Source of the DNA: Escherichia coli
Lineage (GTDB): Bacteria; Pseudomonadota; Gammaproteobacteria; Enterobacterales; Enterobacteriaceae
DNA: 64,000 bases
Direction: 5' to 3' (one strand)
Assembly (NCBI RefSeq): GCF_013315695.1
Contig: NZ_CP054353.1
This document shows, in pieces, positions 13,674-44,840 of the stretch. The notes beneath the pieces are model-generated. The model was not told where the DNA came from and did not search any database. It worked only from the letters and a program-made list of their open reading frames with translations. Each line of letters opens with the position of its first letter. The first letter of the stretch is position 1. Both the position numbers and the translations under genes were made by a program.

Positions 13674-15674
13674 TCATCCTTGTTGCTGAAGCATGGGGAA
13701 TAATTGTTCGCAAAGCAAAACACCGTTATTCATTGCTTCTACCCGTGCCTCGCTTTCTGTATTACGAAATTGTCCCAACACATGTGCCAGCCGATAAAAA
13801 CCCACCGCGGTGAGGTCATTCGCCAGCAACTCTGCCTGACCAATAGCACTCTGTTCCTGATAGCGCCAGCCGTTATGGAGCAGTTGAATAAGTAACGCCT
13901 GGCAGCGCATCAGCAACTGATGAGCGGTAGACGGCACAGGCAGAACGCTGGCAGAAGGTAGCGGTGCCACAGGCGCAGTTTCTGCGTCCAGCGCCCAGGC
14001 GCGGGTTTTTGTCATCATCACCCGTGGTTCCAGTGTCAATTGCCCCTCTACAAAACTGACAAAGCCAGAAACCAGGCTCACGGGGTTGTCTGTTTGTTGC
14101 AAAAGCGCCGCCATGCGTTCAACGGCAAAAGGAGAACAGGCAGATGCCGGAAGGGATAACGTCAGCACATTATCTTCCCCTTCGCCACTGATTACCTGCG
14201 CATCCAGTGTCTGGCGGCTGCTATCCCAACCGAGCGAAATACACTCCGCTACCGGCAGAATAAATAAGTTATCGACCTGGTTGAGTGGTCGTATGCAGGC
14301 GGGGGGACGCTGGCGTAAATATTCCCGCAAAGCCACAATGCCCGGCTGGCGCAACGGCGCGCTCAACATTTGCCAGGCGTCTGGCGACAGTGGAACAACA
14401 CTACTCAAGCGGTTACGGGTCGCTAACAGCAGCTCGCCATCGGCACTGCGTTTTGCTGCTTGTGAAACAATTTGCCCACCAGCCAGTGCGCCAGCCTGAA
14501 AACTAAATAGCCGACGTTTTGTCGCGGGAGCGTTTTCTTGTTCGCTTCTCGGCCAACTACGCGAAAGGTGCAAAATACTGCCGGTGTCGGGATCGGTGAA
14601 CCAGATGCGTAAACCATACTGCTCAATATCCTGCCAGCAACGCATACCTAAAGACACCAGCCGCAGATGATCAAGCTTTGCTTCTCCGGCAATGCCAGAG
14701 CCAACGACCGTGCGCCACGGCACAGGAGGAACTTCACCAACACTGTCGCGCCGCGCCATCTCTTGTGCGCAATTTAATCGACTGTTTAATGCCGCAAGCT
14801 GACGTAAGCATTCTCCGGCATGGTAGTGGCTGGCGCGGGCGTGGAAGGCATCAACGCTGGCGCGCAATTGCCGTAGCGATTCACTCACCCATCGCCAGTT
14901 GCAGCGTTCCGCCGCTTGCTGCGCGCGGCTGAAAGCGGCCTCGTAATGAATAAGCGGCTGGCTGATGCCGCTCAGCCATAATGCCTGGCTTAGTTGCTGA
15001 ACATATTGACGACACGCGTTGCCCTCTTCGCTGGCAAACGGATCGTCAGATGATGTGACGTGTTCGCTGCGCATCTGCCAGATTAAATGGTTAAATTCTG
15101 CTTGCTGCGCTTTGGCCTGGACAAAGGCCTGTACTGCCAGCACAACATGTTCGCAAAGTGTTCCTTCAATACAATCACAGCGTGCGAAACGAATGCTGCT
15201 GCGGGAATAAAAACGTACATCGCTCATCGGTAAGCGGGCAGAGGGAATTTCGCCCGGCGTACAGAACAACTCAATGGTGATGCCTTTAGCGACCAGCGCC
15301 TGCGCGCGTTTGCGGGTGGCATCGGGAAGGGTAGCCAGTTCTTCTAGCCAGATTGCCGGATCCCACTCTTCTTCTTTTTCCGTAGGCTGGGTGGTGGCGC
15401 AAAGTCGCTGATAACTTAAAACCAGCATCACGCGATGGCGGCACATGCCGCTGGCCCCGCAGCTGCATTGAGCCTCTTTCAGTGCCTGACCGTTCGCCAG
15501 CTGGGTACGGACACCGTCACTGAAGGTGGCGATTAAAGCGCCGTTCTTATGGCTGATTTCCGGGACGTTGCCATTTTCCAGTTCCTTAAGACTGCGTTTA
15601 ACAAAACCGGCATTGCTTAACGCCGTCAGGGCCTGCGGCGTCAGTTCTAATAATTCCGGACGTAGTGAATTCAT
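13674..15674 (-). CDS. yehQ: YehQ, SWIM zinc-finger domain protein
   Basis: 666-aa ORF; Cys/His SWIM-like motif near the N-terminus; gene order. Confidence 0.75.
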   Translation of the reverse strand: MNSLRPELLELTPQALTALSNAGFVKRSLKELENGNVPEISHKNGALIATFSDGVRTQLANGQALKEAQCSCGASGMCRHRVMLVLSYQRLCATTQPTEKEEEWDPAIWLEELATLPDATRKRAQALVAKGITIELFCTPGEIPSARLPMSDVRFYSRSSIRFARCDCIEGTLCEHVVLAVQAFVQAKAQQAEFNHLIWQMRSEHVTSSDDPFASEEGNACRQYVQQLSQALWLSGISQPLIHYEAAFSRAQQAAERCNWRWVSESLRQLRASVDAFHARASHYHAGECLRQLAALNSRLNCAQEMARRDSVGEVPPVPWRTVVGSGIAGEAKLDHLRLVSLGMRCWQDIEQYGLRIWFTDPDTGSILHLSRSWPRSEQENAPATKRRLFSFQAGALAGGQIVSQAAKRSADGELLLATRNRLSSVVPLSPDAWQMLSAPLRQPGIVALREYLRQRPPACIRPLNQVDNLFILPVAECISLGWDSSRQTLDAQVISGEGEDNVLTLSLPASACSPFAVERMAALLQQTDNPVSLVSGFVSFVEGQLTLEPRVMMTKTRAWALDAETAPVAPLPSASVLPVPSTAHQLLMRCQALLIQLLHNGWRYQEQSAIGQAELLANDLTAVGFYRLAHVLGQFRNTESEARVEAMNNGVLLCEQLFPMLQQQG

Positions 15675-16737
15675 GACTGAAGATTCTCCGCAAGCCAGGC
15701 CGCCAGCTCGCCCGGTGTCATGGCGGCTATTTGTGCGCCGACATTAACTAGCGCCTGGGCCGTATCGTGGTCATAGCAAGGTGTTGCGGTGCTATCGAGC
15801 GCCGCCAGTCCCAGCACTTTGATGCCGCTCTGGACACACTTTTTCACCTGATGCGTCAGTAATGATGATGAACCCCCTTCGTAAAAATCGCTCACGAGGA
15901 TAATGACGCTTTTCGCTGGTTGTTCAATAAGTTGCCGACCATATTCCATGGCACTGGCGATATTGGTTCCGCCGCCTAATTGCACTTTCATTAATAACTC
16001 TACCGGATCGGCAACGTCTGCCGTGAGATCAACCACGCTGGTGTCAAACGCCACCAGATGGGTACGAATACCGGGTAACTGCCATAAACAGGCCGCCATC
16101 ACCGCTGAGTGGATCACCGAGTCCACCATTGATCCGCTTTGATCAACCAGTAAGACCAGTTGCCATTGTTCGCTTTGGCGTTTAATGCGGCTGTTAAAGC
16201 GGGGGGATTCGATATACAACTTGCCGTGTTGCGGGTGCCAGTGTTGCAGGTTGGCGCGCAGAGTACTTTTGAAATCAAAGTTTCGCGCCAGTGGAATAAA
16301 TGAGCGGCGACGGCGATCGCGGACACCAGAAAAAGCCTGACGAACTTCCTTTGCCAGTCGCGCCATAATTTCTTCCACAACCTGGCGTACTTTTCCGAAG
16401 GCTGCATACGTTCCAGCACGTCGAGATTTGTCACCACATCTTCAATGCCGTAGCGCAGTACGGCATCGCTTTCCAGCCGTTCAATCACCTGTTGCGGAAA
16501 CAGCGTGTGAATACTGTTGATCCACTCAGGGGTGGTGAGATTTGAGCCACCTAATCCACCGGAGCGTTCACCACGCTGGAGCCGTTCAGGATCGCGCCCG
16601 TACAGCCACTCCAGCGCGTGGTCTATCTGCCGGGCGTTGTCATCCAGCCCACAAAGCGTCGTTTCTGCCGCTTCGCCAAGAATTAATCGCCAGCGTTGTA
16701 GCTCACGGGTGGTCAGAAGATCGTTCAGTTCAGACAT
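15671..16737 (-). pseudogene. yehP: yehP (von Willebrand factor A domain), apparently frameshifted
   Basis: Two overlapping minus-strand ORFs in different frames (16114..16737 N-terminal part; 15671..16378 VWA part with DQSGSM motif); 1067-nt span is not a multiple of 3. Confidence 0.6.
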
Positions 16738-19009
16738 GGAAAACTCCCCAGTGTTGCAGCGATGTCAGTGCCTGCTGTTCGAGTTGTTGATGATGTGCAA
16801 TGGCTTGCGGTGGACAATGCAACGGCATTTGCAGCGCTGAAATGGGAAGCTGTGCGAGCTGGTAATGCTCAAGCACCTGATGCGCCAGCGTCCCGCGTTC
16901 TCGTGGTGGTAGCCAGGCCATCGCCGCGCGTAAATTGGGCAGGGCGTTAATAAAATCGTCGTCACTCAGTTGATTTAAATGACTACTGAAACCGGCGATA
17001 AATGCCGGCTGACAGGCCAGTTGATGACGGGCTAATGCCAGCAAACCGTGCAGCGCCTCGCCGGATTGTGCCGGGGATAACTGCGCCAGCATCGTCAGCG
17101 CCGCTTCGGCACTGGCGTTGGGATGTTCCAGACGCATTAGTGCGCCAAGAGCCGCGCCGCGATCCAGCGCCGGGGCATGAATCGCCTGACTGCGGCGCTC
17201 CAGTAAGGCTACCGCCGCAGAAAGCGAAACGCCGGGTAAATTAACGCCGCTATGTAGATCGCGCAGGATATGGCAAAGCGCTTGCCAGCTATGCAGGTGA
17301 GCGTGAAACTCCTTTTCATCCGGTCTGCCGTTGGATTCACACAGCCAGAGTGTGCGATCGATAGCTGCGCATAACGTCGTCTGTAATATCTGCGCGCCTT
17401 GCATACCGCTAATTTCATCCAGCCGCCATAAGGCGTATAGCACTTCCAGCGCCTGGCCCATTTCGGCAAACTGATTTTCCTGGGCGATTAATAATGTAAG
17501 TTGCTCCAGTAATTGTTGACTGAAGGACGCCAGACCCGCTAACGCCGCCTGGCTAAGACATGTGGTGATACTGCCGATTCCACCCGCGTCCAGCATATCG
17601 GCTTCTAATTTATGGCGTGCGGCTTCCTGGAGTGTGGCACCAAAGCAGGCGGCCTCAATTAATGCCGCATGTTGGCTAAGCGGGCGGGTTAATTTCCAGC
17701 GTTCTTCACCGTTGCCTGCAAGTGTCAGTGTACTTCCCTGCTGGCGCACAACCCCTGGGATCTCCAGTATTACCAGCCGATGTAACACCTGACTTTGCGC
17801 CAGTCCATCGGGGGTAAAGCGATTTAAGGTAAGCTCCGCCGGAAAAGAGATTCCGGTACGTTCCAGTTCGCAGGTGACATCTTTTGGCAGAGGTGGCTGT
17901 GGCGTCGAGGGGGCAAGTTTACCGAATCCGTCACCCGCTAATGTGTCTATCAACGTTAGCAGAATCGGATCGGTATCGGGATGAATAACGCCGCGATAGC
18001 TCCACGGCAACGGCGCGTTCAGGGCTTCTTTGATCAGCGAGCCGGCTATAGCATCCAGCCAGTCAGTGCGTAACGGTAGTGTATGACCGCGCAACTGTGC
18101 CAGTGCCATCGCATGCAGATGAGCGGCAGCCATATCCGCTGTTGAAGCAGGCAAGTGGTGCTGGCGCAAACGGGTAAGAACCGTTTTCAGTAGTTGTTCA
18201 CCTGCCTGCTGCAAGCCCCACCGCCAGCACCAGTTTTGCCAGACCGGGGCAGGCATTCCTGAAAGGTATCCTGCCAGCACATCAAGGCGCTTTTCACTGT
18301 ATGGCGTGAGATAGCAACCTGTAACGGCATCTGCCAGCGACGGCAATTCTGGCTTGTTAATTTCTTGCGGGCATTCGCGCCACATTTTTGCCAGTGCCGG
18401 AGCGTGCCAGCCACCGCAGACAACTAACACGTCGCCATTATTTTGCTGCATCGCCCATCCAATCCAGCGGGCCATAAAGGCTTCGCGCTGACGATTGAGA
18501 GCATCTCCGGGGGAGTCGCCCCGCAGTTGGGCAAAATAGTGCGCCAGTGCAGAGGGTAATGCAGTTTGCTGGCTTTCATCTTCGAACAAGTGATCCCACA
18601 GGGTGTCGCTGTTATCCATGCGGGTGGCACGCAGCAGCAAGGCCTGGCTTTCCTCTTGCATATCAGGCGAATCGTCCTCTTCTTCACTTTGTGCCCAGCA
18701 AGGCAAATCGATGAAGTAAGTTTGTGCCTGAATACGACGTGCGGCTTGTAGCGCCTGCCACTCCGGCGAAAATTCAGCAAATGGCGTCCAGGCACCACGC
18801 CCGGGGGCTGCACCGTCCTGATACTGGCAATAACTGTAAATAGCTACCGGAAGCTGGTGGGCTAACAACAGTTCGTCTACCCGGTCATTAAAATCAGCCG
18901 GGCCTTCAATCAACACGTATCGTGGCCGCTGGCTTTCGATTAACGATTTCACCAGCCGGGCGCAGGCCGGACTATGATGCCGGATGCCGACAATTAACGG
19001 CTCGCTCAT
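16730..19009 (-). CDS. yehM: YehM, uncharacterized large protein
   Basis: ORF 16730..19150; likely start at MSEPLIVGIRHH giving 759 aa. Confidence 0.8.
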   Translation of the reverse strand: MSEPLIVGIRHHSPACARLVKSLIESQRPRYVLIEGPADFNDRVDELLLAHQLPVAIYSYCQYQDGAAPGRGAWTPFAEFSPEWQALQAARRIQAQTYFIDLPCWAQSEEEDDSPDMQEESQALLLRATRMDNSDTLWDHLFEDESQQTALPSALAHYFAQLRGDSPGDALNRQREAFMARWIGWAMQQNNGDVLVVCGGWHAPALAKMWRECPQEINKPELPSLADAVTGCYLTPYSEKRLDVLAGYLSGMPAPVWQNWCWRWGLQQAGEQLLKTVLTRLRQHHLPASTADMAAAHLHAMALAQLRGHTLPLRTDWLDAIAGSLIKEALNAPLPWSYRGVIHPDTDPILLTLIDTLAGDGFGKLAPSTPQPPLPKDVTCELERTGISFPAELTLNRFTPDGLAQSQVLHRLVILEIPGVVRQQGSTLTLAGNGEERWKLTRPLSQHAALIEAACFGATLQEAARHKLEADMLDAGGIGSITTCLSQAALAGLASFSQQLLEQLTLLIAQENQFAEMGQALEVLYALWRLDEISGMQGAQILQTTLCAAIDRTLWLCESNGRPDEKEFHAHLHSWQALCHILRDLHSGVNLPGVSLSAAVALLERRSQAIHAPALDRGAALGALMRLEHPNASAEAALTMLAQLSPAQSGEALHGLLALARHQLACQPAFIAGFSSHLNQLSDDDFINALPNLRAAMAWLPPRERGTLAHQVLEHYQLAQLPISALQMPLHCPPQAIAHHQQLEQQALTSLQHWGVFHV

Positions 19010-19019
19010 GCATCTTTCC

Positions 19020-20108
19020 TCACGGCAGGCGGTGGCGAGCTTGATAATAAGCCTGCCAGTGAGCTTCTTTATGTGTAGCGACACGTTGTTCGAAGTAACG
19101 GCGCAGACGTGCGCGATCTTCTTCGTTATCTTTGACGATGGTTCCGGCAATACAGTCCACCAGGTCGGCTGGCTCCCCCGCGCGATTCGCTAAAAACCAG
19201 GCGCGGACACCCACAGCGTGGGCTACGTTCACGGCTTCAGCGGTGGACATAATCGCTGTCAGTGTATCCATTGACGTTTTCTTTTCGCCGTTGGCACGCA
19301 GATCGCGGAAGGTGCGTACCAGTAACTCCAGTACCGCGTCAGGAACTTTATGCGGAATGCCACTATGGGCCAATAAACGCGCCGAAGCACTGGCGACCAG
19401 TTCCAGTTCCTGGGCGAAATCCATAATCGGAAAGACCGTTTCAAAATCGAATCGACGCTTTAGCGCAGCGCTCATTTCATTGACGCCGCGATCGCGGGTA
19501 TTGGCAGTGGCAATAATATTAAAGCCTTCTCGCGCATAGAGCTGACTGGCTTCACCAGTGAGTTCCGGCACCGTCATTACCCTGTCAGAAAGCATACCTA
19601 ACAGACAGTCTTGTACTTCCAGCGGTGTACGCGTTATCTCTTCAAAACGGACGATTTTGCCGTCGCGCATTCCCTGGTAAAGCGGGGCAGGGACCAGTGC
19701 TTCCGTTGACGGACCATGGTTGATAAGCAGGGCGTAGTTCCAGCCGTACTTGATTTGATCTTCGGTGGTAGATGCGCCGCCCTGGATGGTTAACCCGGCA
19801 TCGCCGCTAATAGCGGTTGCCAGTAATTCAGACAGGAGAGATTTTGCGGTGCCAGGTTCCCCCACCAACATCAAACCGCGCCCGGTGGCAAGAGTGACTA
19901 ACATGCGTTCGACAGCGGAGGGACTAATCACCACTTTACGGCTAATATTTTGCGCGCTATCGCCAAGGATAAAAGCACGGGCCGCAGGCAAACTTAACTG
20001 CCAACCGGGCGGGCAAGGTGCGTGATCATTTTGTTTTAATTTTGCCAGTTCATCGGCGTATAACACAGCGGCAGGCGGACGCTGCAGATGATTATTCTGC
20101 GGTGACAT
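19020..20108 (-). CDS. yehL: YehL, MoxR-type AAA+ ATPase
   Basis: Walker A (GEPGTAKS); likely start at MSPQNNHL giving 362 aa. Confidence 0.85.
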   Translation of the reverse strand: MSPQNNHLQRPPAAVLYADELAKLKQNDHAPCPPGWQLSLPAARAFILGDSAQNISRKVVISPSAVERMLVTLATGRGLMLVGEPGTAKSLLSELLATAISGDAGLTIQGGASTTEDQIKYGWNYALLINHGPSTEALVPAPLYQGMRDGKIVRFEEITRTPLEVQDCLLGMLSDRVMTVPELTGEASQLYAREGFNIIATANTRDRGVNEMSAALKRRFDFETVFPIMDFAQELELVASASARLLAHSGIPHKVPDAVLELLVRTFRDLRANGEKKTSMDTLTAIMSTAEAVNVAHAVGVRAWFLANRAGEPADLVDCIAGTIVKDNEEDRARLRRYFEQRVATHKEAHWQAYYQARHRLP

Positions 20109-20224
20109 ATATTCATCCCTGAAATGTATTAATGAAATAAACGATATTTTACGCGCAATAAATGTTTGGCGCATTAGTTGTTTGAGCGGAAAATATCTGG
20201 AAAGCAGATCACAGTAAATAAAAA

Positions 20225-20250
20225 AACCTGCTGGTGAGGCAGGTTCTTTT
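20225..20250. terminator. Bidirectional hairpin upstream of yehL
   Basis: aacctgc-tggtgag-gcaggtt with T-runs on both sides. Confidence 0.5.
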
Positions 20251-20548
20251 ATTTACTACTTTCAGGCCTAACACCACGGCCTGTGCAACATCGTGTTCCA
20301 ACGAACGAATTATAACCATCGGTGGACCCCGTTGCAATTAAGATAATGAGATTTATAATCCTGACTGTTGGGAGGTTGCGCCGGATCGAACCCATTTCAA
20401 GTCCTGGCTACCGGACGGGTGGTGCCGCAGGTAGTGCCCTGATCCGGAGTGCAACATCGTGGTCCAACATACGTAAACCAGTATCGACAGGCAGGTGATG
20501 CTGCCAACTTACTGATTTAGTGTATGATGGTGTTTTTGAGGTGCTCCA

Positions 20549-20824
20549 GTGGCTTCTGTTTCTATCAGCTGTCCCTCCTGTTCAGCTACTGACGGGGTGG
20601 TGCGTAACGGCAAAAGCACCGCCGGACATCAGCGCTATCTCTGCTCTCACTGCCGTAAAACATGGCAACTGCAGTTCACTTACACCGCTTCTCAACCCGG
20701 TACGCACCAGAAAATCATTGATATGGCCATGAATGGCGTTGGATGCCGGGCAACAGCCCGCATTATGGGCGTTGGCCTCAACACGATTTTACGTCACTTA
20801 AAAAACTCAGGCCGCAGTCGGTAA
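20549..20824 (+). CDS. insA: IS1 InsA
   Basis: 91-aa ORF inside IS1 copy A. Confidence 0.9.
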
Positions 20825-21246
20825 CCTCGCGCATACAGCCGGGCAGTGACGTCATCGTCTGCGCGGAAATGGACGAACAGTGGGGCTATGTCGGGGCTAA
20901 ATCGCGCCAGCGCTGGCTGTTTTACGCGTATGACAGGCTCCGGAAGACGGTTGTTGCGCACGTATTCGGTGAACGCACTATGGCGACGCTGGGGCGTCTT
21001 ATGAGCCTGCTGTCACCCTTTGACGTGGTGATATGGATGACGGATGGCTGGCCGCTGTATGAATCCCGCCTGAAGGGAAAGCTGCACGTAATCAGCAAGC
21101 GATATACGCAGCGAATTGAGCGGCATAACCTGAATCTGAGGCAGCACCTGGCACGGCTGGGACGGAAGTCGCTGTCGTTCTCAAAATCGGTGGAGCTGCA
21201 TGACAAAGTCATCGGGCATTATCTGAACATAAAACACTATCAATAA
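20743..21246 (+). CDS. insB: IS1 InsB (expressed as InsAB' fusion by frameshifting)
   Basis: 167-aa ORF overlapping insA inside IS1 copy A. Confidence 0.9.
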
Positions 21247-21256
21247 GTTGGAGTCA

Positions 21257-21967
21257 TTACCCAGTAGCATATTCCAGACCGCCTTCCTGAATAATCTGAT
21301 CCATAACATCCTCACGCTCTTTATATCTCGTGCAGTGCAGTTCAAGTGCCGCGAGTACAGCCATTACCGGTGATGGTAATTTTGTCGTTTTCGGGCTGTT
21401 AATCAGATCGATCGCCTGAGCGATGAAGTTTTGCCACTCTAAAGTACAGGCGCTGAAGTCAAATGTAGCTGTTTTGTTATCCCGTTGCGACACGCCACAG
21501 GCTAAGCGACGTAACTGGGTTAATTTATCTACAGGTGTAACAGGATCTCCGGGAAAGCGGCGATGGCTTAAGGTGGTGGGTACGACTTCAAGCGGAAAAA
21601 CGACAGCAATATCTTTTGCCAGCCACGGTAAAATAACGTCTGTATTTTTGTCAGCCACGTAGATTTCTGGTGTAACTGAGGGCTGTTCCTGAATGATGGT
21701 AGAAAAGTCAGATAATTCGAGAGTTTTCGTTACCGTTCGAGTATGTTTCGATGTAGCATTCTCCGCTTGTTCCACATACCCCTTTTTCGTTTTCTCCGCA
21801 ATCAGCTTGAGTTCCGCTTTTTCCGCCGCCGCAGCATCTGCAAAGCTTTTTACCTGACTTTGCCCGTTGGTGCCGACTTTGCCCCAACTGATATTCAGTT
21901 CGTTTCCCTGCTGCTCCACCGCCCAGAATTTATGTGATTTTTCGTCCTGATAAATATAGGTTTTCAT
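21257..21967 (-). pseudogene. yehI: yehI-like WGR-domain protein, N-terminal 235 codons only, truncated by IS1 copy A
   Basis: ORF begins MKTYIYQDEKSHKFWAV (WGR) and its stop codon lies inside the IS1 terminus. Confidence 0.65.
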
Positions 21968-23658
21968 TGCAAAGTCCTTTTAATCAAAAAGTGATTCGAT
22001 GTCGTTAATGAGTTCGCTGGCGGTGATGTCGTCGAGCATGGAAAAAGTAAGTAAAGGTTGTTTACCGTAGCGATCATCTGGCGAGGTGATTTTTACGCTT
22101 TCAACAGGTAACAGGTCGCCATAACCTGTTTCGCCGTAAATTAATGAAAAATGTTCTGTTTCAAGTTCGAGATCGCCATAAGGGGTAGATTTGCGCATCG
22201 CATAGACGCTGCCGCTTTCTTCCAGGCGTTGCCAGCCTCGGCGCACTAGCCCGACAATGCGCCCTGCCTGGCAAAGACGTCCGCTCCAGCGTGTCAGTTC
22301 ATGAGTATTCTGTTCATTATCAGCAAGACGATAACTACCACGATCGAGCTGTTGGAAGGGGGGAAGCAGTTCGTAATCAGCGTAAATTTGCCTGAATGCA
22401 GCGGCAGATTCAGGGGGGATTTCCAGCATATGCGGAATACCGATGTTTCCTGCTGGTAGCGTGAATAGCTCATCCTGCATATCGCTGTAAGTGCTGTCTT
22501 CTGCGACCCGGAAGCAGGCAATCAGCGTGTTTTCCTCAGTATATACCCCCCATAACAGTCGTCGGGTTAAGTGACGTACCAGTGGGTGCTCCACCATGAA
22601 CAGGCGGAACTGCTCTGTTGTCCAGCGTCTGCGCTGGCACATAGCCTGTTCCAGACGATCAATCTGCTGGCTGGCTATGGCGCGTACATCTTTTTTCAAC
22701 TGTTTGAAGAGGTTAACGGCGTCAGTTGCCAGTGTTTTATCATCGCTCTGGTTTGGTTTGGGTAAGTCTTTCAGGACTTTGCCGTTTGCGTCACGAACCA
22801 TGGGTTTTAAGGTTTCGTCAAAACCAACGGTGAATTGACGTGGGCCGAAATCAAGTGTCAGCGAGCCGTTGATATCAAGCCCCAAATCTGGAGCCAGACG
22901 GTCTTCCAGTTCAGCCATTGTCAGTCCGCGATTTTTGGCGACCATATTGATTTTGTCGCTCGCATGTTCCTGCAATGCGGCGAATTTAATTTTTTGCGCA
23001 ATGCCATTAAGCAACATTAGCGCAATGTCGCTACCGATACTGGCTAACACATCCAGCCCGTAAACCGCGCGTTTATGCTGGGATTCACCCGGCCAGGCGC
23101 GGATAAGCGGGGTTAATTTACGCGCGGTGTCGTCATCGCCTAAAATTCCCAGCGAGGTAAATGCCCAGTTTTCTTTTGCGGGAGCGCCAGCTTCTGTCCA
23201 GGCGGTATACAGATCCCAGCCAAAGTCAGCCAGGGAATCGCGGGTGAAGGTGTCTTTGATGATCTCCAGCCCAGCGTAGGCGGTAATGTCGCGTGAAAAG
23301 CTCAACATAGTGCCGAGGTGGCGCATAGCGTCATCTGGCAGAGGCAGGTTGTTACTTTTAAGCCGTGGTCTGCGCCATAAGGTGAACTGATAAAAGCCGG
23401 GCAGTGGGGCGATTTTTGCGGGATGATCCTCAAGCGGATCGCTATCAAATAATGTTGCCAGCGCTGCTAAAATATCAGGTTGATTATATCCTTGGGCGAT
23501 TTCCTCAATCGTTTCTCGCTGGTTTAATTTCACTAGCAGGAGGAGTGCCTGGCGGGCATATTCCCGATTTTGGCACGGTTTGCCCAGCGCCAAAGGCAGT
23601 AGCCCGGCGGCGGCATGGCGCGGGTTATTTGCCAGCCAATTAACGGCATCCTTGTAAG

Positions 23659-25084
23659 TAATGCCAGTCAGTTAAGCAACTGACTGGCTCTTTTTCGGGG
23701 CTGTGGGGTATTTCCAGGGCCTCTCCTTTACCACTCTCGGGAAGGCCCTTTCCCTTCTTGTCGGTAATTTCACAAGTTGTCCCATACTTGCAAGATCGCG
23801 CATCAGCTCCGGTATACGTCCCGGTGAAGCGCCCTGCAATGTCATCAGCATTCTCATCACCATTCCGCATGATTCTGAGAAACTCAGTTGATTCGGCCAG
23901 TAACCTTTCAGATGTTCCGCCATTTTAATCATCTGATATCTCACCAGATTATAAGCCAGTAAGACACCCCACAGCTCTTGCTCCACAAGCTCCGGTTTTT
24001 TACTTCTCAGCGTCAGCCTGCTCAGTTGCATCGTCTGTTTTATCTCCCTGTATCCCAGTTCGATTTCCCAGCGATGACTGTACAGATCCGCCATTTCTCC
24101 TCCGGGGAAGCGCATGGCGTCCGTCATCGACGTCAGCAGATGGCAGACTTTTCCTTTGCGCGTCACGGTCAGCAGGCGGGCTGTCACTTCATTTCCCAGT
24201 CCCGGCCACTTTTTTCGTGCCTGCGGGCTGGTTTTCAGCTTCACCAGATGATCGCCTTTACCCAGTTTTCTGATCTCTTCATATTGCGCTCCCTTTCTGA
24301 GAGGTATCATCCAGTGGCGGTGTTCTCCCGCCAGGCTCCAGGCATTTAACAGTCCCAGTGAGTAATAACCTTTATCCATTAACGTCAGAGTGTTATCGCC
24401 GGTTTGTTCTATAAGTTGCTCAGCAAGCTCATTTTCGCTGTTCTTCATCGTGCCGAAGGCTGCAGCCGTCAGCAGATGGCTGGTCAGTTCCATCTGGCAG
24501 ACCATTTTGACCTGCGGGTAGAGCGCCGGGTTCCCGGCATGTGTCTGGCGGGGGAAGGCTGCATCGTTCTCTGGTGTATCCGGTGTGCGCCAGAACACAC
24601 CATCGATGGCCAGCAGGGTCAGGCCGCACCAGTGCGGATGCGGCGTGGCGTTATGCCAGAGCTGCGCTGTTTTCGTGAACACGCGGCGGACAGCCTCACT
24701 TCCCAGGCGCTGGCGGGCCTGAATAACGGCACTGGGGGCAACGAAGGGGCGATTGCCCGGCAGCATGATGTCCAGGCGATTCACAATCTGGTGAAGAGGT
24801 TCTTTACGCTCAAGCGCCATGCCAACAATACACCAGACCATCATTTCGAGGGGAAGACGGCGCTTGCGTAGCGTTACAGTACCTGATTCGGCAAGGCAAC
24901 GAGAGATGAGTTCGGGGTCGAGGTAATCCCCCAGAGAAGTCAGTGGGTTACGCAGAGAATCGTAACGGGATACCAGATCAAGAGCCTGTCCAATGTGCAT
25001 AAAAAAATCCGGAAACAAGTGAGCGTTTCCGGATTCTTACACAGCCACTGGATCGGTCAACTGATCCTTAACTGATCGGCATTA
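23659..25084 (-). mobile_element. IS4 (1426 bp) with 12-bp target-site duplication catccttgtaag
   Basis: Termini taatgccagtcagttaag … cttaactgatcggcatta; identical 12-mers at 23647-23658 and 25085-25096. Confidence 0.9.
23672..25000 (-). CDS. insG: IS4 transposase (DDE family)
   Basis: ORF 23672..25018; likely start at [10 protein letters not shown]. Confidence 0.85.
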
Positions 25085-27322
25085 CATCCTTGTAAGCCAT
25101 TTTTTTCTGTAACCGCTGCGCCATTGGTAAGGCTAGTTCACTGGCCCCAATAAAGAGGGTGAATATCCACAGTCGTTGATGATCTCGTTGCAAGCAGGTC
25201 ATAAACGAAGGAATGGCCGTACTGCCAAAAATCCCCAGAATCTCTTTCTCACCTGAATATTGCTCCTCAATGATTATTTGGTTGAGAAATGAAATCGCCT
25301 GTTGTCCCGGTAAGTAACAAAGTGCAGATAGATTCCAGCTCTTGTTGGCATTGTTGTGATATTTCGCAAACTCAGCTTTTAGTGTTGGAAAATCAAAGCG
25401 CAACAAGGCATCAACAGCGCTTTGCGGTATATATTTTTTTTCATGCAAGTCATCCTCGCAATGCCGCCATTCATTAAAACCTAATTGCCAAAGGATTTGT
25501 TGTTCTGGTGTAAAAGGAATGAAAGATGTCTCCCAACTTTCTTTTTCAATTAGTGGCAGATCGGTAAATAAGGTTTGCTGTGATGCCTGATATTGCGCGA
25601 TTTCACTGAATCTGGATATGTCAGTATGACTGATTAACTCTGTAATTCCAGGTGTGATATCCGTCACGGCTGGAACAGGAAGCACAGGTAAATCAAATAC
25701 GGGTATTACATTTTTCTTCTTATTTATTACCCACGGTGGAGCGACAAATAGCTGCGGTAGCATATCCGCAGTAGCGTATTCATATTCTTCAGCGACTGAC
25801 TGAGGACGACATTCAGATAAGATGCCTGCCGCCTTAGCATTAACCCAGGGAATGACGTCGCATACTAACTCTGGCGTGATGGTAATCAATTTGACAAGCG
25901 CTTTATGCCACTCTTTATCTTCATGTATTGCCAGCAAAGTTGCATAAGCGGCAATAGCCGCAGCGGGATGTTTTTGACAGGCTTTGCTTAAGTATTCCAG
26001 GTGCTTTTTCTTGCCAATTACACCGAGGATCAGAATTTGAATCGCATCCGGGTGATTCGTTTTCCATAACCATTTGACAAGATCTTCAGTCTCGCTGATG
26101 CGCTCGAAGAGATAAGTGGGATTGTCAGAATGCTCTTCCACAAACTCAGTAAGTATCCGGCTTACACCGCTCACCCCATTATTTGCCAGCAACATTGCCA
26201 GATAAGCGCGAAAATCACGATATAACGGTGGGAAGTCGTATTTTTCTGCTGCAGTCAGAGCGGCATCATCGGTTACTACCAGTCTTAACCAGGTCATCGC
26301 CGGAACGTTTTGGTCTGCGTAACGTAGAGCCATAGCATTGGCAATATCCGGGCGTTCAGGGAGCAGTAACGCCGCAAAAGGTTGCCGTGCTGGGGATAGC
26401 GTCGGAATAGCAGTAAGCACTTTATTCACACAGCGTTGCCACTCATCTTCTGAAGCGAGTGAAAGATGATGACATAGACGTTGATGCCAACTCGGTAGCG
26501 ATTCTGCTTTGTGACCAGGTGGAATGATGGTGGTGACTGCGCCTTTTACTGGTTTATATTTGAGTTGAAGAGCAAAAAGGGCGATTTCAACGGCACTTTC
26601 CAGACCACAGCGAATGACTAAGTCATCGACCAGTTCATCTGCAGAGTAAGAGTTCCAAAAACTCCAGAGCAATGCCGCATCAGATTGCGCACTCCCTGTT
26701 TGTTGATTGTCCAGAATTCGACTTTGTAACTCGGCAAACGCTTGCTGCCAGTTTTCAGGATAAGAGCGGTAATTATTGTCGGGGTCATATGCCCTGGTGT
26801 TATTCGCAATGCGCTGCCATATTTGACCATCTTTGTGCAGATAATTGATCTCTCTGGGGCGAGAGCGATGTGGAAAAGCAAATCGATTAATATCGTCAGT
26901 GACAGGAATGACTGCATCATCAGCCAGCCATGGGTGTTTATTTTGACTCACAGGGGGAGTTTTAACTTCAGGAGTGGCTTTGGTGACTGGAGGGAGATAT
27001 ACGTTTGCCGAATTGCCTTCCACATACCCCTTTTTCGTTTTCTCCGCAATCAGCTTCAGCTCCGCTTTTTCCGCCGCCGCAGCATCCGCAAAACTTTTTA
27101 CCTGGTTTTGCCCTTTGGTGCCAACTTTTCCCCAACAGATATGCAACTCGTTTCCCTGCTGCTCCACCGCCCAGAATTTATGTGATTTTTCGTCCTGATA
27201 GATAAAGTGTTTCATTCTGCATTCCTGTAATTTTATCCAGTTGAATGCTGATGCTACCAGTATTTATGCGGGTTAGAGAGAGACAAAATCGCAAGAAAAC
27301 AACTTTAGGAATTTATAAAGAA

Positions 27323-27346
27323 AAGGCGCTGTCGATGCAGCGCCTT
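27323..27346. terminator. Bidirectional hairpin between metG end and molR start
   Basis: aaggcgctg-tcgatg-cagcgcctt with T-run on the minus strand. Confidence 0.55.
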
Positions 27347-27355
27347 GAAGGGGGA

Positions 27356-29389
27356 TTATTTCACCTGATGACCCGGTTTAGCACCAGCATCCGGGCTTAG
27401 CAGGAAGATATCTTTCCCGCCAGGACCGGCAGCCATCACCATGCCTTCGGAGATACCGAAGCGCATTTTACGTGGTGCCAGGTTAGCCACCATAATGGTG
27501 TGACGACCAATCAGTGCCTGCGGATCCGGGTAAGCAGAACGAATGCCGGAGAAGACATTGCGTTTTTCACCGCCGAGATCCAGCGTCAGGCGCAGCAGTT
27601 TGTCAGAACCTTCAACAAACTCTGCGTTTTCGATCAGCGCCACGCGCAGGTCAACTTTGGCGAAGTCGTCAAAGGTGATGGTTTCCTGAATCGGATCATC
27701 TGCCAGTGGGCCAGTAATTGGCGCGGCAGCTGCTTTCACTTCTTCTTTAGACGCTTCCACCAGTGCTTCAACCTGCTTCATATCGATGCGGTTATACAGC
27801 GCTTTGAACGGATTCACTTTGTGGCCCAGCAGCGGTTGCTGGATACCATCCCAGGTCAGTTCTGTATTGAGGAATGCTTCTGCGCGCTCGGTCAGTTTCG
27901 GCAGTACCGGCTTCAGGTAAGTCATCAGCACGCGGAACAGGTTTATGCCCATTGAGCAAATTGCCTGCAGGTCGGCATCGCGGCCTTCCTGTTTTGCCAC
28001 CACCCACGGAGCCTGTTCATCGACATAGCGGTTAGCCAGATCAGCCAGCGCCATGATTTCGCGTACTGCTTTACCAAATTCGCGGCTTTCCCACGCTTCA
28101 CCAATCACTTCAGCGGCATCAGTGAAGGTTTTGTACAACTGCGGGTCAGCCAGTTCGCTTGCCAGCACGCCGTCAAAACGCTTGTTGATAAAGCCCGCAT
28201 TACGAGAGGCCAGGTTAACCACTTTGTTAACGATATCGGCATTCACGCGCTGAACGAAATCTTCCAGGTTGAGATCGATATCATCAATGCGCGAAGAGAG
28301 TTTCGCAGTGTAGTAGTAACGCAGGCTGTCGGCGTCAAAATGATTCAGCCAGGTGCTGGCCTTAATAAAGGTACCGCGAGACTTAGACATCTTCGCGCCG
28401 TTCACCGTCACATAGCCATGAACAAACAGGTTGGTCGGCTTGCGGAAGTTGCTGCCTTCCAGCATTGCTGGCCAGAACAGGCTGTGGAAGTAAACAATAT
28501 CTTTACCGATGAAGTGGTACAGCTCGGCGGTGGAGTCTTTCTTCCAGTATTCATCGAAGCTTACGCTGTCGCCGCGCTTGTCGCACAGATTCTTGAAAGA
28601 ACCCATATAGCCAATCGGCGCATCCAGCCAGACGTAGAAATATTTACCCGGCGCGTTCGGAATTTCAAAACCGAAGTACGGCGCGTCGCGGGAGATATCC
28701 CACTGTTGCAGGCCGGATTCAAACCACTCCTGCATTTTATTTGCCACCTGCTCCTGCAACGCACCGCTGCGGGTCCATGCCTGCAACATTTCGCTGAAAG
28801 AGGGCAGATCAAAGAAGAAGTGTTCAGAATCACGCATTACCGGCGTAGCGCCAGAAACCACCGATTTCGGTTCGATCAATTCAGTCGGGCTGTAGGTCGC
28901 GCCGCAGACTTCGCAGTTATCGCCGTATTGATCCGGGGATTTACATTTCGGGCAGGTGCCTTTCACAAAACGGTCCGGCAGGAACATGCCTTTTTCCGGA
29001 TCGTACAGCTGAGAAATAGTGCGGTTTTTAATAAAACCGTTTTCTTTCAGGCGGCTGTATATAAGCTCTGACAGCTGACGGTTCTCTTCGCTGTGCGTAG
29101 AGTGGTAATTGTCGTAGCTAATGTTAAAGCCTGCGAAATCAGTCTGATGCTCCTGACTCATTTCGCCAATCATCTGCTCCGGGGTGATACCGAGCTGCTG
29201 AGCTTTCAGCATGATCGGTGTACCGTGGGCATCGTCGGCGCAGATGAAGTTGACCTCGTGGCCGCGCATTCGCTGGTAACGGACCCAGACATCAGCCTGG
29301 ATGTGCTCCAGCATATGGCCGAGGTGGATTGAGCCGTTAGCGTACGGCAGTGCGCACGTCACCAGAATTTTCTTCGCGACTTGAGTCAT
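27356..29389 (-). CDS. metG: Methionyl-tRNA synthetase
   Basis: ORF 27356..29398; start [26 protein letters not shown] (HIGH motif), KMSKS present; 677 aa. Confidence 0.95.
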
Positions 29390-29520
29390 AGTAGGCATTA
29401 CTTCTTAATAGTGAAAAGGGGTTAGATAGTACCAAATGGGAAAATGTTAAGTAAGTACTTCTCTATATTCTTCAGGTAAACTATCAGCTGATGGTTTATC
29501 TATACAAAAAAGGAGTCGGG

Positions 29521-30630
29521 ATGAACGAACAATCCCAGGCCAAATCACCAGAAGCCTTGCGCGCAATGGTCGCCGGGACACTGGCCAATTTTCAGCACCC
29601 AACCCTGAAGCATAACCTCACCACGCTGAAAGCGTTGCACCATGTCGCCTGGATGGACGACACGTTGCATGTGGAACTGGTTATGCCATTCGTCTGGCAT
29701 AGCGCGTTCGAAGAGTTAAAAGAGCAATGTAGCGCCGAACTGCTGCGTATCACCGGGGCGAAAGCTATCGACTGGAAACTGTCGCACAATATCGCCACCT
29801 TAAAACGCGTGAAGAATCAGCCGGGAATTAACGGCGTGAAGAACATCATTGCGGTCAGCTCCGGTAAAGGCGGCGTGGGTAAATCCTCCACGGCGGTAAA
29901 CCTGGCGCTGGCACTGGCGGCGGAAGGGGCGAAAGTCGGCATTCTGGACGCCGATATCTACGGCCCATCAATCCCCACCATGCTGGGCGCAGAAAATCAG
30001 CGTCCAACTTCGCCGGACGGTACCCACATGGCACCGATTATGTCTCATGGCCTTGCAACCAATTCAATTGGTTATCTGGTCACTGACGACAATGCGATGG
30101 TGTGGCGTGGTCCGATGGCGAGCAAGGCGTTAATGCAAATGTTGCAGGAAACCTTGTGGCCGGATCTCGACTATCTGGTGCTTGATATGCCGCCAGGCAC
30201 CGGTGACATTCAATTGACACTGGCACAAAACATTCCAGTAACTGGCGCGGTAGTGGTCACCACCCCGCAGGACATTGCGTTGATCGATGCGAAAAAAGGC
30301 ATTGTGATGTTCGAGAAAGTCGAGGTTCCGGTGCTCGGTATTGTCGAGAACATGAGTGTGCATATTTGCAGTAACTGTGGTCACCATGAACCGATTTTCG
30401 GTACCGGTGGTGCAGAGAAACTGGCCGAGAAATACCACACGCAGTTGCTGGGGCAGATGCCGTTACACATCTCCTTACGTGAAGATCTCGATAAAGGCAC
30501 GCCAACGGTTATCAGCCGTCCGGAGAGCGAATTTACCGCTATCTACCGCCAGCTGGCTGACCGCGTTGCAGCCCAGCTTTATTGGCAGGGAGAAGTCATT
30601 CCTGGCGAGATTTCCTTCCGCGCGGTCTAA
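29521..30630 (+). CDS. apbC: Fe-S cluster carrier ATPase ApbC (Mrp)
   Basis: ORF 29491..30630; start MNEQSQAKSP; P-loop GKGGVGKS; CxxC motif. Confidence 0.9.
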   Translation: MNEQSQAKSPEALRAMVAGTLANFQHPTLKHNLTTLKALHHVAWMDDTLHVELVMPFVWHSAFEELKEQCSAELLRITGAKAIDWKLSHNIATLKRVKNQPGINGVKNIIAVSSGKGGVGKSSTAVNLALALAAEGAKVGILDADIYGPSIPTMLGAENQRPTSPDGTHMAPIMSHGLATNSIGYLVTDDNAMVWRGPMASKALMQMLQETLWPDLDYLVLDMPPGTGDIQLTLAQNIPVTGAVVVTTPQDIALIDAKKGIVMFEKVEVPVLGIVENMSVHICSNCGHHEPIFGTGGAEKLAEKYHTQLLGQMPLHISLREDLDKGTPTVISRPESEFTAIYRQLADRVAAQLYWQGEVIPGEISFRAV

Positions 30631-31148: not shown

Positions 31149-31203
31149 GGTGATGCTGCCAACTTACTGATTTAGTGTATGATGGTGTTTTTGAGGTGCT
31201 CCA

Positions 31204-31479
31204 GTGGCTTCTGTTTCTATCAGCTGTCCCTCCTGTTCAGCTACTGACGGGGTGGTGCGTAACGGCAAAAGCACCGCCGGACATCAGCGCTATCTCTGCT
31301 CTCACTGCCGTAAAACATGGCAACTGCAGTTCACTTACACCGCTTCTCAACCCGGTACGCACCAGAAAATCATTGATATGGCCATGAATGGCGTTGGATG
31401 CCGGGCAACAGCCCGCATTATGGGCGTTGGCCTCAACACGATTTTACGTCACTTAAAAAACTCAGGCCGCAGTCGGTAA
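31204..31479 (+). CDS. insA: IS1 InsA
   Basis: Identical to the other copies. Confidence 0.9.
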
Positions 31480-31901
31480 CCTCGCGCATACAGCCGGGCA
31501 GTGACGTCATCGTCTGCGCGGAAATGGACGAACAGTGGGGCTATGTCGGGGCTAAATCGCGCCAGCGCTGGCTGTTTTACGCGTATGACAGGCTCCGGAA
31601 GACGGTTGTTGCGCACGTATTCGGTGAACGCACTATGGCGACGCTGGGGCGTCTTATGAGCCTGCTGTCACCCTTTGACGTGGTGATATGGATGACGGAT
31701 GGCTGGCCGCTGTATGAATCCCGCCTGAAGGGAAAGCTGCACGTAATCAGCAAGCGATATACGCAGCGAATTGAGCGGCATAACCTGAATCTGAGGCAGC
31801 ACCTGGCACGGCTGGGACGGAAGTCGCTGTCGTTCTCAAAATCGGTGGAGCTGCATGACAAAGTCATCGGGCATTATCTGAACATAAAACACTATCAATA
31901 A
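31398..31901 (+). CDS. insB: IS1 InsB
   Basis: Identical to the other copies. Confidence 0.9.
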
Positions 31902-31967
31902 GTTGGAGTCATTACCTAAATAGGCTTGATGAAAGTTCTATTTCTATATTTTTCAATATACAAATTT

Positions 31968-31995
31968 CCCCAAAAACGGCGTGAATATCACGCCG
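31968..31995 (-). terminator. Intrinsic terminator for the 94-aa ORF
   Basis: cggcgtg-atat-cacgccg hairpin followed on the minus strand by ttttt. Confidence 0.55.
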
Positions 31996-32000
31996 ATCAA

Positions 32001-32285
32001 TCATACTTCAGAACACATACTCAATGTGTAAACAGCCATCTCTCCATCGGGATTAGAAGGGCGTAATACAAATATCGGTATACTGCCATTGTCAATGTAT
32101 GTGGCTGCAACCCCTCCGTCAGGTGTAGCATACAAATCAAGTCCTTCACAAAACTCTTTTGCCGTAACCTTTTTAAGATGGTCAGCATATTTGATCATCT
32201 GGAGGTGCATTTCCATCGTTTGGCTATTTCGTGGTGCGCTGCTAATGGCTTGCTTAATGTTCTCGTAGATCTGGGTTTCTGTCAT
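32001..32285 (-). CDS. Hypothetical 94-aa protein of unknown function (orphan gene divergent from thiM)
   Basis: Clean ORF (MTETQIYENIKQ…) with its own terminator and an AT-rich upstream region carrying a perfect palindrome; I do not recognise the family. Confidence 0.5.
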   Translation of the reverse strand: MTETQIYENIKQAISSAPRNSQTMEMHLQMIKYADHLKKVTAKEFCEGLDLYATPDGGVAATYIDNGSIPIFVLRPSNPDGEMAVYTLSMCSEV

Positions 32286-32316
32286 TGTTTATCCCACCTA
32301 TCAAATTTAGAAAAAT

Positions 32317-32338
32317 AATATTAATTAGCTAATTAATA
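32317..32338. promoter_or_regulatory. 22-bp perfect palindrome atattaattagctaattaatat, candidate operator
   Basis: Perfect dyad symmetry read directly; lies about 32 bp upstream of the 94-aa ORF start. Confidence 0.4.
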
Positions 32339-32494
32339 TAATCAATGGTTTTCACCATCTGAATGATAGTCGCTAATTGTTTCTTTTTCATTCCTTCTAT
32401 GGGGTACAAAATGGGGTACACAGAGAAGAAGCAATTAATGGAGGCGAGCTTGCATCTGCAAGCCACTTCCCCTAAGCTGGCACAAAATATAGAG

Positions 32495-32631
32495 ATTCAA
32501 CCAAACGACTCGGGGTGCCCTTCTGCGTGAAGGCTGAGAAATACCCGTATCACCTGATCTGGATAATGCCAGCGTAGGGAAGTCACGGACCACCAGGTCA
32601 TTGCTTCTTCACGTTATGGCAGGAGCAAACT
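32495..32631 (+). promoter_or_regulatory. TPP (THI-box) riboswitch in the thiM leader
   Basis: Contains ggggtgcccttctgcgtgaaggctgagaaatacccgtatcacctgatctggataatgccagcgtagggaa, the classic thiM THI-box, directly upstream of the thiM start. Confidence 0.85.
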
Positions 32632-39112: not shown

Positions 39113-39170
39113 CTTTTAATTCCTTCATGACAGGTAATGTAAGGTACGCGATGACGGTAATGACTCCAAC

Positions 39171-39674
39171 TTATTGATAGTGTTTTATGTTCAGATAATG
39201 CCCGATGACTTTGTCATGCAGCTCCACCGATTTTGAGAACGACAGCGACTTCCGTCCCAGCCGTGCCAGGTGCTGCCTCAGATTCAGGTTATGCCGCTCA
39301 ATTCGCTGCGTATATCGCTTGCTGATTACGTGCAGCTTTCCCTTCAGGCGGGATTCATACAGCGGCCAGCCATCCGTCATCCATATCACCACGTCAAAGG
39401 GTGACAGCAGGCTCATAAGACGCCCCAGCGTCGCCATAGTGCGTTCACCGAATACGTGCGCAACAACCGTCTTCCGGAGCCTGTCATACGCGTAAAACAG
39501 CCAGCGCTGGCGCGATTTAGCCCCGACATAGCCCCACTGTTCGTCCATTTCCGCGCAGACGATGACGTCACTGCCCGGCTGTATGCGCGAGGTTACCGAC
39601 TGCGGCCTGAGTTTTTTAAGTGACGTAAAATCGTGTTGAGGCCAACGCCCATAATGCGGGCTGTTGCCCGGCAT
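39171..39674 (-). CDS. insB: IS1 InsB
   Basis: Identical to the other copies. Confidence 0.9.
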
Positions 39675-39868
39675 CCAACGCCATTCATGGCCATATCAAT
39701 GATTTTCTGGTGCGTACCGGGTTGAGAAGCGGTGTAAGTGAACTGCAGTTGCCATGTTTTACGGCAGTGAGAGCAGAGATAGCGCTGATGTCCGGCGGTG
39801 CTTTTGCCGTTACGCACCACCCCGTCAGTAGCTGAACAGGAGGGACAGCTGATAGAAACAGAAGCCAC
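39593..39868 (-). CDS. insA: IS1 InsA
   Basis: Identical to the other copies. Confidence 0.9.
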
Positions 39869-40145
39869 TGGAGCACCTCAAAAACACCATCATACACTAA
39901 ATCAGTAAGTTGGCAGCATCACCCGCGATGACAATACCACTTAATAATACCTTTTAAATACCTTTGCGGTGAAAACTTGACCGCTGTAACATTTTTTCTG
40001 ATGAATCGAGCCAACAGAAAACGCTGAAAAAACATCCAAAAGATGGAAAAACTCGCCCGTAACGACCAGGATTATGATTGCCCGCAAAAGGCGGGCCAGG
40101 ACAATCCATAGCCGATATCCAATCGGAATTTACGGGAGCATAGTA

Positions 40146-43571: not shown

Positions 43572-43854
43572 GGACGGTATATGACTAACCTGTTTGTTCG
43601 TAGCGGAATTTCTTTTGTCGATCGTAGCGAAGTTTTAGCCCATATCGGTAATGAGATGCTCGCGAAAGGTGTGGTTCATGATACCTGGCCACAGGCATTA
43701 ATTGCCAGAGAAGCAGAATTCCCTACCGGGATAATGCTTGAGCAGCACGCCATTGCAATACCGCATTGTGAGGCGATTCATGCTAAGTCGTCAGCCATTG
43801 GTGATGCTGCCAACTTACTGATTTAGTGTATGATGGTGTTTTTGAGGTGCTCCA

Positions 43855-44130
43855 GTGGCTTCTGTTTCTATCAGCTGTCCCTCCTGTTCAGCTACTGACG
43901 GGGTGGTGCGTAACGGCAAAAGCACCGCCGGACATCAGCGCTATCTCTGCTCTCACTGCCGTAAAACATGGCAACTGCAGTTCACTTACACCGCTTCTCA
44001 ACCCGGTACGCACCAGAAAATCATTGATATGGCCATGAATGGCGTTGGATGCCGGGCAACAGCCCGCATTATGGGCGTTGGCCTCAACACGATTTTACGT
44101 CACTTAAAAAACTCAGGCCGCAGTCGGTAA
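43855..44130 (+). CDS. insA: IS1 InsA
   Basis: Identical to the other copies. Confidence 0.9.
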
Positions 44131-44552
44131 CCTCGCGCATACAGCCGGGCAGTGACGTCATCGTCTGCGCGGAAATGGACGAACAGTGGGGCTATGTCGG
44201 GGCTAAATCGCGCCAGCGCTGGCTGTTTTACGCGTATGACAGGCTCCGGAAGACGGTTGTTGCGCACGTATTCGGTGAACGCACTATGGCGACGCTGGGG
44301 CGTCTTATGAGCCTGCTGTCACCCTTTGACGTGGTGATATGGATGACGGATGGCTGGCCGCTGTATGAATCCCGCCTGAAGGGAAAGCTGCACGTAATCA
44401 GCAAGCGATATACGCAGCGAATTGAGCGGCATAACCTGAATCTGAGGCAGCACCTGGCACGGCTGGGACGGAAGTCGCTGTCGTTCTCAAAATCGGTGGA
44501 GCTGCATGACAAAGTCATCGGGCATTATCTGAACATAAAACACTATCAATAA
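44049..44552 (+). CDS. insB: IS1 InsB
   Basis: Identical to the other copies. Confidence 0.9.
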
Positions 44553-44840
44553 GTTGGAGTCATTACCTCAGCCATTTATCTGTTAAGGCCAACAAATAAA
44601 GTTCATTTTCAGCAAGCGGATGATGATAACGACGTGGCGGTATCGTTGGTTATTGCGTTGATTGTGGAAAATCCGCAGCAGCAATTGAAACTTTTACGCT
44701 GTTTATTTGGCAAGTTACAACAGCCCGATATCGTCGAGACACTAATTACTCTTCCTGAAACTCAGTTAAAGGAATACTTCACAAAGTATGTTTTAGATTC
44801 AGACGAATAAATCCCTCTGTAACAATAAAAAGGACTGTTT

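Follow-up and report, generated by a model that had tools for sequence, protein, structure and literature searches.

An IS1-associated deletion scar between yehL and a truncated WGR-domain gene in Escherichia coli

Results

Organization of the locus

The window analysed here, a 64,000-nucleotide stretch of the Escherichia coli contig NZ_CP054353.1, contains a group of yeh genes interrupted by an insertion sequence, IS1 copy A, at 20494–21261 (+ strand). The first intact gene to the left of the element is yehL (19020–20108, − strand), which encodes a MoxR-type AAA+ ATPase (AAA_5, 1.6e-34); yehK and yehI, which normally lie upstream of it, are missing. Between yehL and copy A lie the antitoxin sRNA gene orz (20220–20295, −) and a remnant of its partner zor (20332–20493, +). 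To the right, a truncated WGR-domain gene (21257–21967, −) reads into the IS1 end. An extra WGR/DUF4132 paralogue (21980–27215, −) follows, placed between this yehF/yehH orthologue and metG; an IS4 element with its transposase CDS at 23672–25018 divides it in two. This paralogue is absent from K-12, and over its first ~200 bp it shares 91% identity with the beginning of the truncated gene. The IS4 split is also found in AF14 (NZ_OZ546925.1), a close relative in which the region is intact, and it thus predates the deletion described below.

Further along the locus, yehM encodes a DUF5682 protein, yehQ a SWIM protein, and yehP (15671–16737, −) a vWA protein whose gene is frameshifted into two ORFs. 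The yehP frameshift is annotated in AF3 (NZ_OZ547117.1), MSB1_4I (NZ_LR898874.1) and AF14 alike and therefore also predates the IS1 scar. Since the frameshifts of yehP and yehK and the IS4 split are all present in AF14, the locus was already decaying before the deletion. Membership of the yeh genes in a defence system was considered and set aside, none of seven proteins matching a PADLOC defence model at E ≤ 0.01. A literature search on DUF4132, yehI, yehL and yehM yielded a single relevant work, a type I toxin-antitoxin paper. At the left end of the window (1–9950) lambdoid prophage tail genes (minor tail L, gpJ, Lom and tail fibre) and a DinI-like gene lie beside btsS, where K-12 and M505 have mlrA-yohO-yehW. 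The ~0.3% divergence of the window from AF3 and MSB1_4I probably lies mostly in this segment.

IS1 copy A and its flanks

Copy A is an intact, 768-bp element of the IS1A type, in which insA (20549–20824) and insB (20743–21246) are connected by a programmed frameshift. Its termini are imperfect inverted repeats, with the sequence GGTGATGCTGCCAACTTACTGAT at the left end and, after reverse complementation, GGTAATGACTCCAACTTATTGAT at the right end. Length (~768 bp), imperfect terminal repeats and the insA/insB' frameshift all correspond to the IS1 family, and RefSeq assigns the identical sequence in AF3 and MSB1_4I to the IS1A family transposases, with a programmed frameshift. The element is oriented with its left inverted repeat (IRL) towards yehL and its right inverted repeat (IRR) towards the truncated WGR gene. 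A search with the IS1 left end located four copies in the window, A, B, C and D, which are base-for-base identical.

The 9-mer at the left end of copy A is CGACAGGCA (20485–20493) and that at the right end is CAGTAGCAT (21262–21270). The two differ, and no target duplication of 8 or 9 bp is present, whereas copies C (39156–39923, −) and D (43800–44567, +) are each flanked by a perfect 9-bp duplication, GTCATCGCG and TCAGCCATT, respectively. This contrast had been drawn when the DNA was read without database searches, and it holds. The lack of a duplication leaves the identification of the element as IS1 unaffected and is expected if a deletion came after, or together with, the insertion. The empty sites for C and D in AF14 overlap by exactly 9 bp, which identifies both as simple insertions. 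The AF3 counterpart of D interrupts gatA and that of C lies between yegT and fbaB; yegT of AF3 also has an internal stop and gatY a frameshift. The damage to gatA, yegT and gatY indicates that the whole 64-kb region is accumulating pseudogenes.

Identity of the truncated WGR gene

The truncated gene retains 706 native nucleotides (235 codons), after which the reading frame passes through GGG, the junction codon, and stops at a TAA within the IS1 IRR, and its product is thus 236 residues long, 235 of them native and one contributed by the junction. The end coordinate of the earlier observation, 21967, is the start codon of this ORF and does not mark the end of IS1. The gene is annotated as a pseudogene in RefSeq. 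Its product matches residues 1–235 of a 1,262-residue WGR and DUF4132 protein of AF14 at 100% identity and is 76% identical to K-12 YehF over 235 residues, while the identity to YehI is only 35–37% and is restricted to residues 110–235. Similarly, Pfam detects a WGR domain in the remnant (5.5e-19) and in the AF14 protein, but none in YehI. The DNA of AF14 and K-12 is collinear across the region (89–94%), which makes the gene the positional orthologue of K-12 yehF/yehH, formerly molR, and in AF14 its intact counterpart lies just upstream of yehI. Judged by protein identity and gene order, the truncated gene is the yehF/yehH ('molR') orthologue and not yehI, and yehI has been deleted in full. 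The sequence-only reading of a yehI-like WGR ORF running into IS1 was accordingly right in its anatomy, 235 native codons and then the IS1 end, and wrong in the name of the gene, which is of the YehF type. The K-12 yehF/yehH copy is the same positional gene with the same WGR N-terminus and is non-functional as well; no IS1 is involved in its disruption, and yehI and yehK still follow it. The gene in the window, unlike that of K-12, breaks off at codon 235, and the DNA beyond it up to the zor leader has been lost.

Extent of the deletion relative to AF14

The region 19000–23600 of the window was compared by megablast with 5,426 complete E. coli genomes. The whole arrangement was found in only two of them, AF3 and MSB1_4I, while AF14 and OZ546911 are near-identical genomes that do not have copy A. 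AF14, as the nearest relative without the element, served as the reference (locus L007, whose coordinates are used here). Window positions 14420–20493 correspond to L007 22001–15928 and window positions 21262–29892 to L007 8632–1, both at 99.95% identity. The left breakpoint lies at L007 15928/15927 and the right one at 8632/8633, so that L007 8633–15927, exactly 7,295 bp, is missing, with both breakpoints flush with the IS1 ends. The alignment to an intact relative therefore maps both endpoints and places the gap precisely at the element, in agreement with the earlier proposal of an IS1-associated deletion scar. An apparent overlap of 5–6 bp ('ATTACC') at the right junction in the BLAST output is an artefact of gapped extension, and direct reading of the junction is unambiguous. 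An inversion is ruled out by the collinearity of the flanks with AF14.

As annotated in AF14, the missing interval comprises the last 3,083 nucleotides of the 3,789-nucleotide 'WGR and DUF4132' gene, or 81% of this yehF/yehH-type gene counted from its 3' end, the whole of yehI and yehK, the latter already frameshifted in AF14, and 190 bp past yehK. None of the lost genes resides elsewhere in the window: the remainder of the truncated gene, yehI and yehK were not recovered, and the deleted segment gave only weak paralogous matches to the IS4-split gene at 21980–27215. The 385 bp between IS1 and the start of yehL (20109–20493) likewise hold no yehK or yehI sequence, bearing out the earlier observation that neither a complete yehK nor the C-terminus of yehI separates the two. 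Nor was the lost DNA found again in AF3 or MSB1_4I, the two complete genomes with the scar. At ≥99% identity the segment occurs in three genomes only, AF14, OZ546911 and MS 21-1, none of which has the scar (0/3).

IS copies are frequent sites of mis-assembly. The junctions could in principle be such artefacts at a repeat, or AF14-like strains could have gained the segment so that nothing was deleted. Both possibilities merit next to no credence and are effectively refuted: at least 80% of the segment is present in 4,805 of the 5,426 complete genomes (~89%), lying between metG and yehL in every record inspected, which makes its presence the common state and its absence a true loss in this clone. 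In addition, the truncated ORF breaks off within the gene precisely at the IS1 terminus, the zor leader is interrupted within the transcript, and the same junctions recur in complete assemblies of independent origin (UK, Australia and other sources). It is thus nearly certain that 7,295 bp of the chromosome were deleted and that the two ends of one intact IS1 mark the limits of the loss.

The zor-orz remnant

The zor-orz locus has been described in the yehI-yehL intergenic region (PMC2887945), and its features in the window, which occupy the same location, were matched to the published descriptions (PMC2887945, PMC5397157 and PMC11264685). The Orz antitoxin gene (20220–20295, −) is recognized by the Rfam model RF02083 OrzO-P with 98.9 bits (gathering threshold 60; E = 3e-17). 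It is transcribed divergently from zor, has its own −10 element at 20309–20314 (−), and ends in an intrinsic terminator. The zor remnant (20332–20493, +) consists of the promoter, with a shared −35 TTGCAA (20332–20337) and a zor −10 TATAAT (20354–20359), and about 127 of the 174 nucleotides of the 5' UTR. The conserved GGAGTG is still present in this leader. So is the Orz-complementary box that is expected 72–92 nucleotides upstream of the zor ATG (PMC5397157, PMC11264685), here at 20446–20465 with the sequence GTGCAACATCGTGGTCCAAC. It has 13 contiguous nucleotides complementary to the Rfam-defined Orz, and the complementarity reaches 19/20 if Orz starts about 7 nucleotides further upstream, as the orz −10 suggests. 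A tRNA-like 3' end (GGTTCGATCC...CCA) within 20380–20410 was rejected, as ARAGORN finds no tRNA there and the stretch belongs to the zor leader.

The left deletion breakpoint falls at about +127/+128 of the zor 5' UTR, 47 nucleotides upstream of the would-be zor ATG. The 29-codon zor ORF and its ribosome-binding site (RBS) are absent from the window. In AF14 both lie inside the interval that was deleted; the ORF, at L007 15880–15791 on the strand opposite to the yeh genes, encodes MDTLTQKLTVLIAVLELLVALLQLIDLLK, which is 28/29 identical to the published ZorO (PMC6669753). The deletion thus took the toxin ORF with its RBS and spared the antitoxin gene, leaving orz an orphan, with the left breakpoint inside the zor-orz locus. 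The earlier account of the lost genes recognized the deletion, but the loss of ZorO and the position of the breakpoint in the zor 5' UTR had escaped notice. Transcription from the zor promoter would now enter IS1 in the direction of insA.

The 'orz-only' state is found in about 30% of E. coli (Shore et al. 2024, PMC11264685). Loci of this kind, such as orzPmg of MG1655, likewise have an Orz gene with promoter and terminator and no Zor ORF in the yehK-yehL intergenic region. [quoted passage not shown] In contrast, the allele in the window keeps about 127 nucleotides together with the pairing box, was made by IS1, and forms part of a 7.3-kb deletion. It corresponds to the rare 'disrupted locus' class, which accounts for <0.1% (PMC11264685). 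As discussed in the same paper, it is harmless for the toxin to be lost ahead of the antitoxin, and the toxin-first loss of this type I pair would be 'safe'.

Copy B and recombination between IS1 elements

Copy B (31149–31916, +) lies 9.9 kb from copy A in the same orientation. Its flanks are also mismatched, with no target duplication, a point that the sequence-only reading did not stress, and it too bounds deletions. In AF3 and MSB1_4I copy B bounds a 4,299-bp deletion relative to AF14 that extends across yehE'-yehD-yehC-yehB-yehA'. MSB1_4I has a further IS1, 'X', with the perfect 9-bp duplication TAAATAGGC, and copy B of the window combines the left flank of the MSB1_4I IS1-B with the right flank of IS1-X (window 31917–32497). 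These hybrid flanks show that B and X recombined, and the exchange additionally removed yehA', rcnB, rcnA, rcnR and an integrase/HNH islet that lies between two copies of a TPP riboswitch. A composite transposon running from A to B is ruled out, given that the outer flanks CGACAGGCA and TAAATAGGC form no duplication and the inner flanks mismatch too.

Copy A could have arisen by the same kind of event. One IS1 in the zor leader, with the duplication CGACAGGCA, would have recombined with a directly repeated second one in the WGR gene, with the duplication CAGTAGCAT, excising 7.3 kb and one IS1 and leaving a hybrid element whose two flanks come from different parents. Deletions between direct IS repeats give an identical end product, a single IS with mismatched flanks in collinear DNA, and since the four IS1 copies are identical, a recombinant element would carry no internal mark of its origin. 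The process is documented in the same lineage only 10 kb away at copy B, the 100% identical copies are ideal substrates, and with four to five IS1 copies in 64 kb the local density is high enough to make a two-IS1 intermediate plausible. Copy B is a proven direct-repeat deletion with a two-IS1 parent in MSB1_4I, while copy A is without a known parent: a two-IS1 state was not found for it among the 5,426 complete genomes, nor does any of them carry either parental insertion. Three events would also be needed, two insertions in the same orientation and the recombination itself. We therefore regard this origin of copy A as a serious possibility, tentatively held and somewhat short of even.

Inheritance of the scar and a nested deletion

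The scar is identical in AF3 and MSB1_4I, 216 blocks of the assembly collection contain the 236-residue ORF, and the order WGR'-IS1-yehL is retained in every long contig shown. The scar is thus inherited, and it is inherited in a widespread clinical clone. In OZ039894.1 (GCA_964047195.1, locus L024) the same IS1 and the same right junction are accompanied by a further deletion of ~385 bp that starts at the IRL. This deletion corresponds to window ~20108–20493, with a junction ambiguous by 2 nucleotides, and takes away orz, what remained of zor and the start codon of yehL. The stepwise extension resembles the growth of adjacent deletions reported in the LTEE (PMC11708052). It could itself also be the product of recombination between two IS1 copies.

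IS1 events at the same block in other lineages

Simple IS1 insertions with 8/9-bp duplications are present in the same gene in CM2 and H10407, and in the yehK-yehL spacer in EF5-18-41 and DETEC-E480. Their shared orientation makes them compatible with two parental insertions that later recombine; as ordinary insertions in both target regions they also support an adjacent deletion. Independent IS1-bounded deletions without duplications overlap the same block in MDR_56, SY3626 and the M505 group (loci L006, L004 and L012/L013). MDR_56 lacks about L007 8967–15487. In the M505 group (12 genomes) the deletion has taken yehH through yehQ and extends to yehR; its right junction and that of the window are 13 bp apart. 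An IS1 hotspot or orientation bias within the WGR gene was considered, with junctions at L007 8619–8966 in one orientation, and was rejected as a search artefact: the queries join only same-strand IS1 pieces within 650 bp, which makes both the clustering and the uniform orientation artefactual and supports no claim of a hotspot.

Discussion

Route to the scar

Three routes can lead to one intact IS1 with mismatched flanks: adjacent deletion, recombination between two IS1 copies and, possibly, a one-step event (PMC11708052 for the last). Adjacent deletions have been described classically for IS1 and were re-examined in PMC11708052. They arise by intramolecular replicative transposition and show the same features as copy A, namely a retained element, a deletion that starts flush with its end and no duplication (PMC11708052). 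The anatomy of an adjacent deletion is present here, as the gap is flush with the IS end, the element is kept and the flanks are collinear with undeleted AF14; in comparison with the adjacent-deletion systems, copy A is assigned by anatomy and parsimony only. Adjacent deletion by a resident IS1 is the most likely route, and we give it about an even chance. It is favoured by an intact IS1 with both breakpoints flush with its ends and by the need for two events instead of three. It is further supported by the additional deletion in OZ039894.1, which starts exactly at the IRL of the same IS1, and by the insertions seen at both targets in other lineages. The sequence-only reading had proposed an IS1-mediated adjacent deletion; the deletion at the IS1 ends stands, while the adjacent mechanism is only one of at least two routes that fit the scar.

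Under adjacent deletion, an ordinary IS1 insertion would first have occurred at one of the two breakpoints. The WGR gene is slightly favoured as the insertion site, in which case the original duplication would be CAGTAGCAT. The transposase would then have acted from the other end of the element, the IRL, by intramolecular transposition into a nearby target in the zor leader. Everything between the two sites, together with the original duplicate, would have been deleted while the IS1 stayed in place, and the outcome would be a loss of function for genes of an already decaying locus.

Precursors were sought with 300-bp queries centred on each junction in the 5,426 complete genomes. A precursor insertion in the WGR gene would present the junction ...ATTACATCAGTAGCAT joined to GGTGATGCTGCC, with the IS1 IRL beside intact WGR-gene sequence, and one in the zor leader the junction ...GGAGTCATTACC joined to CGACAGGCAGTGTAAGGG, with the IS1 IRR beside intact zor sequence. 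A single full-length match to either junction was obtained for AF3 and MSB1_4I only, and an IS1 at just one breakpoint with the other side intact was found in none of the 5,426 genomes (0). Thus, with no precursor in this set, we can only infer the order of events and the end that anchored the deletion.

The same result might point to a one-step movement in which a new IS1 arrived and the 7.3 kb were lost together, with no prior resident element. IS movements accompanied by rearrangements and lacking a duplication have been reported, and one-step events were proposed for some IS5 and IS481 cases (PMC11708052). In that study, however, all 14 of 14 LTEE cases resolved into an insertion followed by an adjacent deletion when earlier time points were inspected. 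No one-step event of this kind is known for IS1, and a precursor missing from sampled genomes is weak evidence. A one-step origin of copy A is thus improbable, and adjacent deletion by a resident IS1 remains the preferred reading.

Significance

An IS1-associated deletion scar of this type is an ordinary and well-understood kind of insertion-sequence damage. Its practical consequences are modest and it opens no new biological question. Two more far-reaching readings can be formulated, and we consider it quite unlikely that either applies. The zor promoter may raise the supply of transposase in cis and make copy A an unusually active local generator of deletions, which the nested deletion of OZ039894.1 and the clustered IS1 events within 25 kb would fit. 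Alternatively, the IS1-bounded loss of the yehF/yehH-yehI-zor block may have been selected convergently, a reading that draws on the independent IS1-bounded deletions of MDR_56, SY3626 and the 12-genome M505 group.

The analysis corrects the label of the remnant gene, which is of the yehF/yehH type and not yehI. The window as a whole presents a small natural series of IS1 damage, from the simple insertions C and D through the scar at copy A and the deletion by IS1 × IS1 recombination at copy B to the nested deletion of OZ039894.1. The clone that carries the scar is without YehI, YehK and ZorO, yet it keeps Orz as an orphan sRNA, along with the box that Orz targets.
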